From Dirinaria sp. TL-2023a (taxonomy: Eukaryota), in the NCBI GenBank assembly GCA_051941275.1, contig JAVEBF010000014.1, positions 1-56,336 of the forward strand: a stretch of DNA of 56,336 nt, given 5' to 3'. The notes under the pieces are model-generated. The model worked only from the letters and a program-made list of their open reading frames with translations. It did not search any database and was not told where the DNA came from. This document shows, in pieces, positions 1-6,370 of the stretch (position 1 is its first letter; the number at the start of each line of letters is the position of its first letter). Both the position numbers and the translations under genes were made by a program.

Positions 1-356
1 GGGTTAGAAAGAACTGGGAGGTGGTACGGGAGTATATATATATGTGCACAACATATAGGGGGAGTTTGGAAAGCTAGCTCTCATGTCAAGAAATGGGTGG
101 GAGGATGGATGATGTTCGCCAGGAGGGAGGTGGAAACTGTAAGAAAGAATGAGTGAGTGAATGAATGATATAGGTTTTAGCAGTACAGAGACTCATAGCT
201 ATCCCAGGCCTGGATGATTAAACTTCGACGACTCTCCCTCCTCCTCCATATGAAGGTTCTCTTTTGTGGCGGAAGCACGTGACGATATATCTTGTATCCA
301 TATATATCTATCGTGTATCCTTCGTTGCGCATCCCATCCAACAAGCACATGTGATT

Positions 357-3356
357 TCACTCCAAAAGCCCAGCCCCAACAGTCTCACCCCCGGATCTCA
401 GTACCACCCGGTTCCCCACTTCCAACGGCACGGCCTCATCCACCTCCACTACGACCCTAGCCACATTCCCCGGCTTCACGATCTTCACTTTCTTCTTCGC
501 GCCCGGAGCCGGCTGTCCCGTACTCTTCTCCAGCACGACGATCAATCTCGTGACTTTCCCCGGCGCATGCAGGCGTCCTCGGTGCACCTCCACCGCCATG
601 GGCAAGATATGTTCGAAGGCGAGGATTTTCATGGTGAAGCTTCGAATGGCGCGGATGGGTGCCGAGGGCGGGCACAGGATATCGCCTGTCCGGAGGTGCT
701 TCTGGTCGATGTCCGCCAAGTGCAGGATGACGTTCTGCCCCGCCACGGCCCAGTCCGCGGGTTCTGAATGGACTTCGAGGCCCTTGATGGAGGCGGTCTC
801 GCTCGAGGGTGTCACAGTCACGATGTCCCCGATCTGGACGCTGCCGGCGTCGAGCCGGCCCGAGACGGAGAGCGGGTTCTGCACGCCGCCGCGGAAGATA
901 TCGTCAATGGTCATGCGGAGGGGTTTCTCGAGCGCGCGGGTAAATGGTTCTGACGATTCGAGGAGGGTGACGAGAGGTGGGCCGGAGTACCACGAGGCCT
1001 CTGGCTGGGTGGCTTTGCGGACAATGTTATCGCCCGTCAAGCCGGAGCAAGGTAGGAAAGGGAGGTTCTTGAGCTGGAAGCCCGCTGCAGTAAGGAACCC
1101 GGAGACTTGCTGATGGATCTCGTCGAAACGATCCTTCGACCAGGAGAGGGTGTCGAGTTTGTTGACTGCGACGATGATACGCTGTACGCCCATGCTTCGT
1201 ACCAGCAGCGCATGCTCTTTGGTTTGCCCCTTGAGGCCGGATTCGAAGCTTCCCGTGCTGGCGTCAACGACCAGGACAGCGAAGTCGGCTTGACTTGCTC
1301 CTGCAATCATATTGGGGATGAAGTCTCTATGGCCGGGCGCGTCAAGAATTGTAAATGCAGTCTTGTCCGTTTCAAACTTGTTCATGCCTATGTCGATCGT
1401 GACGCCTGCATTTCGCTCATCGCTCCCTTGGTCCAAAACCCAAGCGAGTGCGAATGAAGACTTGCCGATACTCGCGGCTTCTTTGCGGTACTTGTCCAGC
1501 GTACGCCGGTCGACAACTTCCAGATCATAGAGAAGGCGGCCCATAAGGGTGCTTTTGCCAGCATCCACATGGCCTAGAAAGACACACCCAAATCAGTGCG
1601 ACTATTCAAGACTACACCGCTGGATATTTTGAGCAGCCTCTTAAGATGCTCAAAGACCTACCAATCACGACAAAATTGGCAGCAGGCTTCTGCTTGTTCT
1701 TCTCGAATTCTGCAATGACATCCAGATTCTTGCTTTTCGGTTTCGGAATATCGTTAATTGCAACGTTCTCTATACCCTTCGAAACGTCATTTACAGTCTT
1801 CGATTGTTCGGTTTTCTCTTTTTTAAATCCTAGAAGAATTTAGTGTCCTAGTTATGCCTTTCGCGCTCCTCGTGCCGTACCTTTCGAATTCTGCGCTTTC
1901 AGAACGATGTCATCTGGGCTGGGTTCTGCAAACGCAGCTAATTCAGCATTTGTCATTGCACGGGGTATCAGCGGAAAAAGAACAAGTTGCGAGCTAGTAA
2001 GATTGCAATCCAAGGAACGTCTTTCGTCGGTCTTTCGATGCGGAACAGGAAACGACGCAAATAGCGTCTGAGCGAAAGCCGAAGGCAAGGCAGCTGGAAT
2101 AACGGGAGGCTCCACATTCTCATTTGCTTCTAGATCAGCTGGGTTTGAAGATTCCTTATCTACTTTGATTGTCTCAGTCTGTTCGTCCAACGAGGGTTCT
2201 CGTCTTCGTAGCGGCAATTTCCACGTACGAGTATCCTGAATTGGCGAAGAGATTTCTGGCTCGGCTGGCTTTGAAGGTCCTATAATCCCTTCAATTCCCT
2301 CAGAGTGTCCGTCGATCAACGGTTCACGTTTTCGTAGCGGCATTTTCCGTATACGATATTCCTGAGTTAGCGCAGAGATTTCTCTACCAGCTGCACCTTC
2401 CTCGTTCAACGTACTCGAGGTGTCTTTCCGTCCTAACTTATCCAGGATTGCGACAGAGCTATTGGCACTGCTGGCGGGTTGCTTTTCGTTCTCTCTCTTC
2501 CTGCGGGCGGCAGCTAATGCAGCAAGTTTCGAAGGTTTGCCATCACCCTGTGAAGATGCGCCGCCCAAGAGCCCTCCACGAGGATGCAGTGGTTCGACCA
2601 GGATTTCCCCACGACGTTCTGGAGGAATATTGAGCCATGGGCAGTCCTTGAAGAACTCGCTCGCGGAGAGCTTGACGTCGCAATGTTCCTTATCCATTGA
2701 TGCTTTCTTTGATAATGCAGAGACTGCTAAAGAAACGTTAATGACTGATATGTGAAGCTCGTGAGTCTGCAGCATACCAGTAGAGTGGGCTCGAGTCTGT
2801 TCACGAGTATATATATAGGGTATGCATGAAAATATAGGTTTTGTTGGGAAATCAACGTGCGCAAAAAAATATCAAGGCTTACCAAGAACAGACTGCCCTT
2901 TTGAGGTATTTTTTGGTTTGTTTTGAGCTTTAGTGGTACTCCCACTCTTTTGACCTTGAGCATATTCAACGCTTGATGACTCACTGAGACATTGAAACAC
3001 GCACTTAGAAGGTAGTTGACAGATTTTTCGACATCATAGTAGTAATGCCATAAGGATTCTTCGATTTCTCTGTCGGAAAATTTCGTATCGGGACCAATAA
3101 TGCCTCGTACCTTCACGGTGCCCTGCCGTAGTTGCTCTGGATTGTTTGTTAGTACTCTGGGAGCACGTTGCCGGCGCTAGACAACCTTTATCCTCGGCGG
3201 TGAGTTCTGTAGATCCTTAGCTGAGCACCACATAACGACATGATTAGCCGCACGATCCGTATCATCGTCCTCGCAGTCCTCGTAGTCCCCGCCTCCGTCA
3301 TAGTCATCTAACTCCGCATCCAGATCCAAAGCCTTCACCAATTTGTGTCTGGACAT
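357..3356 (-). CDS. HBS1: Hbs1 translational GTPase (eRF3/EF1A-like ribosome rescue factor); alternatively spliced HBS1/SKI7 locus
   Basis: ATG 3356 (MSRHKLVKALDLD). Exons 3356-3254, 3206-3186, 3136-3005 (HBS1_N motif EIEESLWHYYYDVEKSVNYLL), 2954-2883, [2726-1881], 1829-1662, 1573-357, all joined by phase-1 GT-AG introns. GTPase motifs: G1 GHVDAGKST, G3 DAPGH, G4 NKLD, followed by beta-barrel domains II/III. Confidence 0.95.
1852..2726 (-). CDS. SKI7: Ski7-like alternative exon of HBS1 (Ski complex/exosome-binding motifs)
   Basis: Open exon with PSKLAALAAARRKR, ALPSAFAQTLF and AFAEPSPDDIVLKAQ, matching recalled Ski7/HBS1Lv3 motifs. Acceptor TTAG ends at 2727, donor GTACGG at 1880, in-frame TAA at 1852-1854 if the next intron is retained. 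Confidence 0.8.
2132..2383 (-). repeat. 126-bp (42-aa) degenerate tandem duplication inside the Ski7-like exon
   Basis: Anchors recur at a 126-bp offset: gctgg at 2138/2264, ttcgtagcggca at 2205/2331, agagatttct at 2248/2374. Confidence 0.85.
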
Positions 3357-3997
3357 CGCTGATGTTGGTATACTCTGGGTGGAACAGCAAGTACATGAAG
3401 AAGTATGGTCAAACAGCAGTGTATTAATTCAGAGAGACTAGTTCACTAATTGATTTTGTTGGCCGTTCCCGGAATGGACTTCTGTACACTATTATAAGGT
3501 ACCTCAGGCACCCTTGGTAGTTCATTCTAGGGCTAATCTAGGGCCAGAAAAACGTTATTGACCAGGTGAACGCGTGAAATCCTTCTACACAGCTGCTTGT
3601 CCCAAAGGCATCGTTGAATCATAGGTGCGTTCTGAAGAAAGCTTTCCCTGACTCGATAGAACTTCTCTCGATCTCGCAGGTGGGTTTGGACGGGAGGGGA
3701 CTCAAGTCAAAGTTGGAACGGTTAAGGCCGAGCGCCAGGTGATCCATTATAATAACACGGTGGTTGACTATTTTCCACCCTCAATCCAGGTAGGGGTCAG
3801 AATAACGTAGCATATAAACCCAGCAAGTAGTCTGCATGGGCAGAGTGTATATCGTATTCAATCGAGTTAACCTTAGATATTCACACATCCATGACCACCC
3901 TTGTATCAACCCCCGCAATGGTTATGAAGCTACATACATGCCGCTAATGATGGAACGGAACAAAAACAGCCGGTCTCACTTGGGTTTGCGCCGACCC

Positions 3998-6370
3998 CTA
4001 CAGCTCTATCAGGCTCTCTTCGACTGCTTTCGGCTGCGGCTCGTGCCGCGGCGCTGAAGGGAAAAGCTCCTGGTTGTATGGTACATTGTGTTGGTAAGGC
4101 TGGTTGGAAGGGTTTTGCGTTTGGAAAGGCTGTGCCGGCACCACGGACTGCTGCCAGTATCCTTGCTGTTGCTGTTGCTGTGGTTGTGAAGGGACATTAC
4201 TATAGGGTTTTCCGTGGGGAACTTGGTACGACATCGAAGTTTGCGTCTGTTCCGGAGATGGCAATGAGGGCGTCTGCATGCTGCCATGCCTTTGCTGAGG
4301 CGGCGGCTGCTGCTGCTGAGGAGAGACTTGCTCGTTGTTGCTGTGGTAGTACATCGCAGCCGGGTCTGCTGCCGGCGTAATTGTTGGTGTTTGGGGAGGT
4401 GCCATTGACGGTGTCGGTATCTGTGAATTGTTGAGATCACTCTGTTTTTGCTGGTAGCTCTGATTATTGACGGAGTAGGGTGCGCTGGGAGTATTATACT
4501 GTACGCTGTCTTCTTGTGTTGCTGGGTTGTAGGCTGACGACGATCGGTGTGGCGCGCGGTTATACTGTGCATATGGCGAATGCGGCTGGGACTGCTCTTG
4601 ATAACCAGCCGGTGGCTGCTGGTATGCATCAACATACGAGCTGGACTGCATGTTATAATAGCTCTCGGTCCCAGCTCGATCATGCTGTGGTTCCGAGGGT
4701 ATTGATGGGTACATGTTCGTCGTCACTGGAGTTCCATTAGGCCAATAGCCACCTAAAGTGTGCTGGCTATAGGTGTGTGACAAGCGTTCTTCTAACATTC
4801 GGTCGTAATATCGCACTACTGTAGCTAACTTTGAATGAAGGTCGAGCAGAGTATCTATGGTGATCAGCCTAAGCTTTAAGCAAGAAGACAGGGGCTGTTA
4901 CCGTGTTTGCTCATCGTCTCCCCATATGACCTAGCCAATTTTGGTCTAAGAGATCCGATGCTATCATAAAGTTCTTGGATCTGGGGTTCTCGTAACACTG
5001 TACCGGGCGGCTGATGCTGTAAACGATCGACTAGAGTCGAAAAGAGATTGATATTCTCGGCTTCAACAGGTGTGAGCTCATATTCGTTTCTAGGCTGGAC
5101 AAAGCTCGAGCTGGTCGGTGTTGCAGTACTTGAGGCTTGTTTCTTGAGATTTGCTGCATGCTTTTGTTTCTGTTCTTCCATGTCTTTGATCGATGCCGCA
5201 ATTGCCGCCTTCAACTCCGGATCGTCATCCTCTTCCAGAGGTCTTGATGCCTCGGTGTTGCCATTGGTAACCGTAGGTGAGCGTTGATGTTGCAGTTGCG
5301 ACTGCGGTACGTAACCTGAACCAGAATGGCCCTCAACTTCTTCAAGGCTCATCTTCAGGGCTCTCTTTAGATCATCGTCATATCTATCGTCTACTCGGGC
5401 ATCTCGGGGCTGCATTGAATTGCGGTGCCTCACGATGCTCGCGTTGCCCTTTGCCAGTGACCGCTCGAGCGGCAGAGGGGTGCCCCTTGACTTCTCCATT
5501 AATCTAGCATAGCAGCCATCATCCACCCTCACAGGTTGAATAATACCCAGGTGAGGCAGTGGCATTGACTTTGTCGAGCATTGGCCGTCGAACACATTGC
5601 CGCAGTTCCTGCAGTGGTGTTTTCGGTTTGTGAAGCTGAAAGCCGTCCTGCAGCGCATACAGACGTCGGAATCAACCCATTCTGGCGGCTCGGAGATTGT
5701 CAGTCAAGAGGTCCTCTCATTTTTGCTTAGCACTCACTGCGCTGCTGTCTAGCATACTACTAGACATTTCTGTCTTGGGTGGAAATCTGAAACCCTCTCG
5801 TTGCAGCGTCCTGTAGACCTCGCCGAGGTAAAACATGTCGCTTCGCCCTTCTGTTGCACCTGCCCATCCTTGTACGAGCTCGAGTATCTTGCTCTTGACT
5901 TCTTCGTTCGGCGCCGCTGCACCGTATGCTTTCAATAGCGATATCAGGTTGTCCAAGAATTCTTTCGAGGCGATCTCGGCTAGAAAATGAGAGCCACCGT
6001 TCTTGACGCAGGTATCTGTGAGCTATGCGACGAGGCAGCTTTAGTTCCCTGGAGCTTTCACCTCGAAAAGAGAGAATCGGAGGGCTGACCTTCAAAGTCG
6101 CTAATTGTACATTTGGGTTTTTGTGCCCTATGCGACGCTTCAGAGATCTCATAGCCTCCTTGGGTTGGACCGTTTTGGAGCGTATGATGTCCGAGATTTC
6201 GAGGTTCAACGCAATGTCCTCCCTGGATATGACCCGTCAACATCTCCTCCGAGGCGAAGGGCGCTTGGAAGCTTTTTTTAGCTGGGAAAGTGGCCAACTC
6301 ACAAGCTCGAAGAAGTAGCTCGCTCGATTTGCTCGTCGAGCGCGGAGTTGGAAGCGAACCAACCGGCCAT
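3998..6370 (-). CDS. VPS27: ESCRT-0 subunit Vps27 (VHS, FYVE, two UIMs, GAT, Q/P-rich tail)
   Basis: ATG 6370 ([23 protein letters not shown]). VHS ([12 protein letters not shown]), FYVE (RKHHCRNCG), UIMs ([24 protein letters not shown]), C-terminal clathrin-box-like SLIEL. Four introns. Confidence 0.95.

Follow-up and report, generated by a model that had tools for sequence, protein, structure and literature searches.

The production of two surveillance factors from one gene by the choice of a splice acceptor has been in print since 2013. According to Marshall et al. (PMC3597508), reverse transcription PCR (RT-PCR) in Lachancea kluyveri, Aspergillus nidulans (Pezizomycotina) and Saitoella complicata revealed that a single SKI7/HBS1 intron is spliced to either of two 3′ sites. 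In these species the motifs S1 and S2 are located between the two sites and the distal site lies just upstream of motif S3; the long form does the job of Ski7 and the short form that of Hbs1. The same paper describes an alternative promoter for Candida albicans and, for basidiomycetes, exon skipping together with a possible truncated form devoid of the GTPase. The alternative splicing event is also conserved in Aspergillus fumigatus (Hurtig et al. 2020, PMC7491326). For Arabidopsis, Brunkard and Baker (2018, PMC6143672) describe a patch 4-like motif directly past the alternative segment, and a minor transcript form in which a 'poison intron' bearing in-frame stops is retained. Here we describe a further case of the published ascomycete SKI7/HBS1 arrangement. 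It was found on a contig of Dirinaria sp. TL-2023a (JAVEBF010000014.1 of assembly GCA_051941275.1), the 56,336 nucleotides (nt) of which are called the window, where an intron-bearing fungal gene was read from the sequence of the minus strand at positions 357-3356.

We consider it likely that this locus is the putative single SKI7/HBS1 gene of a lichen-type ascomycete, in which one donor (2883) can be combined with two alternative acceptors. An Hbs1-type N-terminal domain and a GTPase of the eEF1A/Hbs1 type are both encoded here: Pfam detected HBS1_N (PF08938, E 9.8e-15) on the frame spanning exon 3, and GTP_EFTU (2.6e-48), EF-Tu domain 2 (2.3e-09) and domain 3 (2e-07) on 357-1592. The Pfam scan of the long open exon and of the linker exon matched no family. 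Between the two Hbs1 parts lies an 846-nt segment (2726-1881), flanked by phase 1 on both sides and open solely in the frame that fits a phase-1 junction. The splice signals (TTCTTG/gtaagc after 2883, tttag/CAGTCT before 2726, CGAAAG/gtacgg after 1881 and ttctag/GATTTA before 1829) and the three motifs that a first-pass annotation had reported for this segment are all present in the sequence. The switch itself is an alternative 3′ splice site inside the segment (AG 1927-1926) and not exon skipping. This inner acceptor (tgcag/AACCC) is located 45 nt before the donor of the segment and is in frame, the last G of exon 4 and the following AA forming a Glu codon, after which the protein continues with PSPDDIVLKAQNSK. 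The S3-bearing stretch AFAEPSPDDIVLKAQ is found at 1935-1891, S3 beginning 3 nt past the distal AG, and both S1 and S2 are located between the proximal and the distal AG.

The layout is thus shared with A. nidulans, L. kluyveri and S. complicata: one gene, one intron with a proximal and a distal 3′ site, S1 and S2 between these sites, S3 just past the distal one and the GTPase in both forms. The distal junction is seen in RNA here, too. Unlike those cases, the Dirinaria locus is known from its sequence and from RNA contigs of a relative, the proximal junction from the shared donor is unseen in these contigs, an extra donor exists at 2777, and a duplication of 126 nt has taken place. The gene has six introns as compared to four in A. 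nidulans.

Transcript evidence was taken from four runs (X1-X4) of one lichen-metagenome sample of a single study, in the form of assembled contigs aligned over 300-3500. These contigs are 95-99% (about 97%) identical to the window, with for example 38 differences in 1271 nt, and consequently come from a different genome, that of a close relative. As contigs give no counts, strand, transcript ends or phasing and drop rare variants, the absence of a joint is weak evidence, and the contig-free parts (2761-2867 for the most part in every run, and the bulk of the gene in X4) prove nothing. RNA joints set the introns 3253-3207, 3185-3137, 3004-2955 and 1661-1574. The joint of main interest, 2883>1925, connects the end of exon 4 to the inner acceptor, removes 957 nt with GT..AG borders and is present in X1, X2 and X3, i.e. 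in three of the four runs. The long segment is transcribed as well, since it is under unbroken contig cover over 1897-2727. Contigs break at 1897-1926, an overlap of exactly one word-length, as is expected of an assembly graph at a point from which two real continuations part. The expectation of more than one mRNA form is borne out, with at least two forms among the contigs.

With the distal acceptor (AG 1927-1926), translation would yield an Hbs1 of 585 amino acids (aa), consisting of HBS1_N, 15 residues with PSPDDIV, the linker and the GTPase. If the proximal acceptor (AG 2728-2727) is used, 801 nt more, with the Ski7-type motifs, would stay in the mRNA, and the predicted product is a Ski7-like adaptor of 852 aa in which the GTPase is retained. 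Because exon 4 joins an acceptor within the segment (2883>1925), the short form has 585 aa and keeps PSPDDIV. Present in both isoforms, PSPDDIV cannot be what separates Ski7 from Hbs1; in human HBS1LV3 it has a minor role in exosome binding (PMC5389692). The part that would discriminate the long form is S1/S2, S3 being common to both forms, and a division of labour between the isoforms may be presumed along this line.

The first-pass annotation had taken 2726-1881 for a cassette exon that is skipped as a whole (2883>1829) and would leave a 570-aa Hbs1 without PSPDDIV. Its exon sums are correct: skipping gives 570 aa, inclusion 852 aa, and inclusion with retention of the 51-nt intron behind the segment 400 aa, the last product ending ...GTARGARKA at TAA 1854-1852. 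For a cassette exon speak the agreeing phases, the open 570-aa product and the exon skipping known for basidiomycete SKI7/HBS1 (PMC3597508) and for plants (PMC6143672). However, the joint 2883>1829 occurs in none of the contigs of the four runs, which come from a relative about 97% identical, whereas 2883>1925 is found in three runs; the inner AG is conserved in 28 of 40 orthologous clusters (see below), and the published case from Pezizomycotina is one of alternative 3′ splice sites (PMC3597508). Rare variants are lost from contigs, hence a minor skip could go along with these data, but skipping of the whole segment is very improbable as the source of the short form. The choice between two acceptors explains the contigs better.

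The assignment of the segment to Ski7 is based on motif conservation. Among 7999 candidates scored, 152 longer proteins matched the exon translation at E<=1e-3. Those listed belong to Pezizomycotina (lichen fungi, Aspergillus, Penicillium, Exophiala, Fusarium, Blumeria, Tuber) and have about 690-950 aa, with a top identity across the exon of just about 40%. HBS1_N and the GTPase domains are carried, at about 800 aa, by 110 of the 120 matches listed, from which it follows that the long form is the usual single annotation. The prediction that gene callers give one model was thus right, and this model is the long one. Alignments of 19 full proteins and of 14 trimmed segments from Pezizomycotina, the latter being the basis of a profile, both showed invariant columns in FF.D.PW..P..R...P...LLGG, in SKL.ALA..R (S1), in PS.FA (S2) and in F..PSPDD.V...Q (S3). 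In the window the FFxDxPWLN..LLGG block is found at 2658-2560, S1 (PSKLAALAAARRK, with the core SKLAALAAAR) at 2535-2497 and S2 (ALPSAFAQTLF, fitting the pattern PSxFAxTL) at 2091-2059. Judged from this sequence conservation, the presence of the Ski7 motifs in the exon is not due to chance.

A comparison of the profile with all chains of the PDB returned seven matches, five of which are Ski7 or HBS1L. Their E-values are marginal and rest on short motifs: the human 'Isoform 2 of HBS1-like protein' (9g8m_E, E 0.0017) is aligned over its aaRPSAFAsTL and fdFksaSPDDIV, and yeast Ski7 (8qcf_L, 0.0023; 8qca_E, 0.035) places MSLLEQLARKR on S1 and FNRPSPDDII on S3; 5jea_K (E 0.19) and 5g06_P (E 1.4) complete the group. 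The profile was required, as the single exon sequence gave two unrelated PDB matches only, with E above 1. Within the profile alignment the human RxxxFxxxL falls on ALPSAFAQTL of the window. This element (RPSAFASTL in human) is necessary and sufficient for the binding of HBS1LV3 to the exosome, and PFDFxxxSPDDIVKxNQ plays a minor role therein (Kalisiak et al., PMC5389692). In yeast, the PSPDD residues belong to patch 4, which contacts Csl4 (PMC4942675). On sequence grounds, therefore, the element that sets the long form apart appears to be S1/S2 and not PSPDDIV. Taken with the Pfam hits, the profile matches uphold the statement of the first-pass annotation that one locus carries the Hbs1 parts (HBS1_N and an EF-Tu-type GTPase) together with a Ski7-type insert.

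The Ski7-specific region also contains a 126-nt unit (42 codons) that is duplicated in tandem and in frame (window 2128-2379), with copies that are 72% identical. The duplication doubles a stretch of the type R.(R/W)K.PLR(K/R)REP..D (2355-2320 and 2229-2194), where homologues have a single RKYP.R-type stretch, and it is the reason why the insert is about 45 residues longer than in homologues. Tandem Repeats Finder reported none on 1800-2900; the diverged duplication surfaced in a separate repeat search.

Conservation of the distal acceptor was followed in orthologous loci. When metagenome contigs were scanned with the trimmed alignment, a pattern matched in 433 stretches; tblastn confirmed 160 of them, and the 80 best were retained as orthologous loci. 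With the window included, PSPDD[IVL][IVL] is present in 70 of 81 sources, and those with full context form 40 clusters at 90% identity. An AG at the equivalent codon-straddling site (NCAG/GN ahead of PSPDD) was found in 28 of the 40 clusters, and base 3 of the preceding codon is A in 29. Many rows have a word of the ACTRA type (ACTGAA, ACTAAA or ACTAAC) about 20 nt upstream, within coding sequence, which is an impression and not a statistic. A count-based claim for a branch point of the distal acceptor was dropped, as the strict CTRAY motif precedes just 11 of the 28 sites with AG. The clusters devoid of the distal AG include a clade with ..TGAFAGPSPDDIVRAAQAKG (L028, L033, L035, L043, L052, L053, L057). 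In this clade GCT GGN replaces GCA GGN at the usual place of the acceptor, and the donor behind S3 is displaced (CAG/gtggcg).

In the case of the proximal acceptor, the joint 2883>2726 is compatible with the frame and occurs in none of the contigs of the four runs (relative about 97% identical); its use in the long form is presumed. One X2 contig (record 6) joins 2726 to 2778, with 30 nt on the latter side, and thereby excises 51 nt from a donor gtatgc at 2777. The corresponding intron 2777-2727 (gtatgc...cattaac...tttag) is well formed and nested in intron 4. No AG exists between 2879 and 2798, so the 30 nt at 2778-2807 cannot be a small internal exon. The joint may reflect either a second donor (2777) that is used in ordinary transcripts, in which case exon 4 would run on into a stop after ..GKP (reading through the donor of exon 4 gives ..SVLGKP and a stop), or a transcript that starts inside intron 4. 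According to the latter explanation, Ski7 would have an mRNA of its own, with a 5′ exon ending at 2778 that is spliced to 2726, encoding a 733-aa protein from ATG 2697 without HBS1_N. We regard this as quite unlikely. It is true that 2778 is the sole upstream partner of 2726 observed, that its 30 nt do not come from an internal cassette exon, that ATG 2697 is the first in-frame ATG and opens 733 aa beginning just ahead of the conserved block, and that an alternative promoter has a precedent in C. albicans (PMC3597508). The basis, however, is one contig with a 30-nt side in one of four runs, an out-of-frame ATG at 2826 would open a short upstream open reading frame (8 codons), and the Met at the place of ATG 2697 is not conserved among the aligned homologues. 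Most homologues are annotated with the in-frame link of exon 4 to the long region (110 of the 120 matches listed carry HBS1_N), and the second donor in ordinary transcripts explains the joint equally well. The C. albicans gene resembles our locus by Ski7-type sequence upstream of the distal acceptor and possibly by a separate 5′ end of a Ski7 mRNA (2778>2726 here). It differs in that there, as far as described (PMC3597508), no proximal acceptor exists and S1 starts with Met, whereas here a good proximal acceptor is present and an in-frame Met precedes S1 by 54 codons.

Apart from the choice of acceptors, the 51-nt intron directly behind S3 deserves attention. It was removed in contigs of X1 and X2 (joint 1880>1828) and kept in one of X3 (record 8), and this intron-keeping contig also bears the joint 2883>1925. 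The first-pass annotation had proposed to tell the isoforms apart by four RNA signals; splicing of 1881>1829 and retention of the intron were both seen, while 2883>1829 and 2883>2726 are absent from the contigs. Among the 40 orthologous clusters the intron (AQxxK/G) could be modelled in 29, 28 times in phase 1, and it is absent in three; of the eight others, six lacked a downstream anchor and two a single-intron solution. For comparison we used the next intron of the same genes (NFVVIG/H, median 51 nt), modelled in 26 of the 40 clusters; in the other 14 it was absent (5), could not be modelled cleanly (2) or lacked an anchor (7). If retained, the intron behind S3 closes the reading frame in 29 of 29 models, after 1-12 codons, and the next intron does so in 18 of 26 (Fisher p 0.0013); a purine at donor position +3 is found in 4 of 29 against 24 of 26 (p 2e-9), and the mean number of matches to GTRAGT is 3.1 against 4.8 (Mann-Whitney p 1e-8), where all p-values overstate independence because the clusters share ancestry. 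In the other two frames, stops occur in 22 and 18 of the 29 introns. The intron models for these donor counts were picked blind to donor positions +3 to +6. GTTCGA (8) and GTTCGC (3) are the commonest donors behind S3, and GTTTGR types were also seen. In the lichen-type orthologues L011, L015, L016, L018 and L062 no intron follows S3, and in L011 the rest of the gene is intronless as well (an open tail of 496 aa), which indicates that the intron behind S3 was lost in some lineages.

Together, the two RNA states and the cluster data suggest that the intron is kept weak and ends the reading frame whenever it is retained. We read it as a putative poison intron coupled to nonsense-mediated mRNA decay (NMD), as proposed for the Arabidopsis gene. 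Conserved and weakly spliced, it would halt translation 9 codons on if retained, and it would tune output, probably through NMD, instead of giving rise to a third working protein. The further idea that this phase-1 intron is a conserved and deliberately weak switch across Pezizomycotina is tentative and, in our estimate, rather unlikely. As in the fungal locus, a patch 4-like motif follows directly after the alternative segment of Arabidopsis HBS1/SKI7 (At5g10630, PMC6143672) and is included in both forms. The plant cassette exon has only about 25 aa, in contrast to the 267 codons spanned by the alternative acceptor here, and the retained plant intron is located before patch 4, at the 3′ end of the Ski7 exon, and not after it.

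A different fate of the same transcript was part of the first-pass annotation, in which retention of the 51-nt intron leads to a working Ski7 without GTPase like human HBS1L3. Such a protein would have 400 aa if the long region is included and 133 aa (HBS1_N plus S3) if the distal acceptor is used, and the locus would encode three or more proteins. A working GTPase-less Ski7 from this locus is possible, but unlikely. It would agree with the contig of one run that keeps the intron, next to contigs of two runs that splice it, with the stop 9 codons past the donor (1-12 codons in all 29 orthologous models) and with a donor that is conserved yet weak. Human HBS1LV3 likewise terminates 7 residues past its SPDDIV motif (aa 609-625 of 632; PMC5389692), and a truncated basidiomycete form without GTPase was raised by Marshall et al. 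(PMC3597508). On the other hand, the protein is a predicted one that goes back to a single intron-retaining contig, and contigs cannot show translation. Nor can they tell whether retention and the long region belong to one transcript, as 45 nt separate the two sites, which is beyond the word span of the contigs. Intron retention is the commonest and mostly non-productive variant of fungal splicing (PMC3597508), the plant counterpart has been interpreted as a poison intron (PMC6143672), and three of the 40 clusters are without an intron at this place. Since the stop lies upstream of another intron and of about 1.4 kb of sequence, NMD would be the expected fate of the intron-retaining mRNA. The likeness to human HBS1L3/HBS1LV3 (PMC5389692, PMC4942675; PDB 9g8m) comprises an N-terminus shared with Hbs1, a motif of the A+PShFAxxL type and the ..SPDDIV..Q motif. 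As described there, the human form results from an alternative last exon, has no GTPase, and SPDDIV is absent from canonical HBS1L; here SPDDIV is part of both forms, and a product without GTPase would arise only if the intron is retained. A poison intron remains our preferred interpretation.

Database entries call for caution at this point. A profile search of 1.84 billion representatives gave 679 matches at E<=1e-3, and most of the best 150 are proteins of 207-416 aa that end just past S3. Intron read-through was found among 12 inspected, and each of 10 looked up is the only member of its cluster and lies on a contig of 1.3-122 kb (from metagenome, Logan or other assemblies). We rejected these short proteins as evidence for a GTPase-less isoform, as they are open reading frame calls on genomic contigs that halt at the stop of the intron. 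Hundreds of such database 'proteins' of about 210-400 aa, which contain the Ski7 region and end at the intron stop, can be mistaken for a GTPase-less Ski7.

Several observations weigh against our interpretation of the locus. The defining junction of the long isoform, 2883>2726, is unseen in the contigs, and the sole upstream link of 2726, to 2778, comes from one contig of one run. Nor is the distal site universal, given that the AG is missing at the equivalent site in 12 of the 40 orthologous clusters. The RNA support consists of assembled contigs instead of raw reads and stems from one sample and from a relative about 3% diverged. With regard to the intron behind S3, the window itself contributes one of the four donors that have a purine at +3 (gtacgg), and a weak donor that was simply inherited would inflate the cluster p-values, in which shared ancestry is uncorrected.

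The coordinates of the gene are compiled in Table 1. The N-terminus encoded by exon 1 lines up with MSRHKLV of homologues in the alignment of 19 full proteins. The RNA joint 3138>3254 encloses 19 letters that match the micro-exon in the relative. Upstream, a gene of the Vps27/Hrs type is located on the same strand (3998-5703 and beyond). On 4876-5703 Pfam detected FYVE (5.5e-19), a Vps27 GAT-like domain (5.5e-11) and UIM (5.1e-08), and the Q/P-rich tail (3998-4897) matched no Pfam family.

Table 1. Features of the SKI7/HBS1 locus, in the order of transcription (positions refer to the window)
Feature	Positions	Strand	Remarks
Exon 1	3254..3356	-	103 nt; ATG 3356-3354; begins MSRHKLVKALDLD; RNA contig piece stops at 3254
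Exon 2 (21-nt micro-exon)	3186..3206	-	encodes ..LTAEDK..; translation of spliced model
Exon 3 (HBS1_N domain)	3005..3136	-	Pfam; both ends set by RNA joints
Exon 4	2883..2954	-	72 nt; phase 1 at its 3′ end; donor gtaagc at 2882; RNA joints and translation
Piece of intron 4, at least 30 nt	2778..2807	-	joined to 2726 in one RNA contig (X2); donor ctg/gtatgc at 2777
Ski7-specific region	1926..2726	-	801 nt, 267 codons; proximal AG 2728-2727 to distal AG 1927-1926
Stretch common to both isoforms	1881..1925	-	45 nt; EPSPDDIVLKAQNSK; motif S3, alias patch 4
Intron behind S3	1830..1880	-	51 nt, phase 1; gtacgg...ttctag; in-frame TAA 1854-1852
Linker exon	1662..1829	-	GFKKEK...KSKNLDV...NFVVIG; RNA contigs, alignment, translation
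Next intron (NFVVIG/H)	1574..1661	-	88 nt; RNA joint 1572>1661 (cut +1) in X1, X2, X3
Last exon	357..1573	-	EF-Tu-type GTPase with domains 2 and 3; stop TGA 359-357; RNA cover 302-1572

The first-pass annotation is partly supported by this outcome: it was right in outline, as one gene gives more than one surveillance protein, and wrong in the mechanism, while its third protein is unproven. The main point of our analysis is a corrective one. For lichen fungi and most Pezizomycotina, gene models list just the long form of about 800 aa, which means that the real Hbs1 of this organism is missing from annotations. A short form that is modelled by exon skipping would lack the patch 4 motif, which the RNA retains.

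The sole lead beyond the accessible literature is the conserved, weak and stop-bearing intron past S3; no description of its retention in ascomycetes was found in the literature searched, as far as the texts were accessible. If this intron is regulated, the locus would also yield a GTPase-less HBS1L3-like Ski7 of 400 aa and a 133-aa peptide of HBS1_N plus S3, or, alternatively, the intron would throttle both Hbs1 and Ski7 via NMD. Either outcome, if true, would tie the solutions found in fungi and in humans to one ancestral design. With a donor that is weak and conserved and an early stop that is obligatory, the intron is a candidate for a control, at the level of splicing, of the capacity for ribosome rescue and of that of the cytoplasmic exosome in filamentous fungi.

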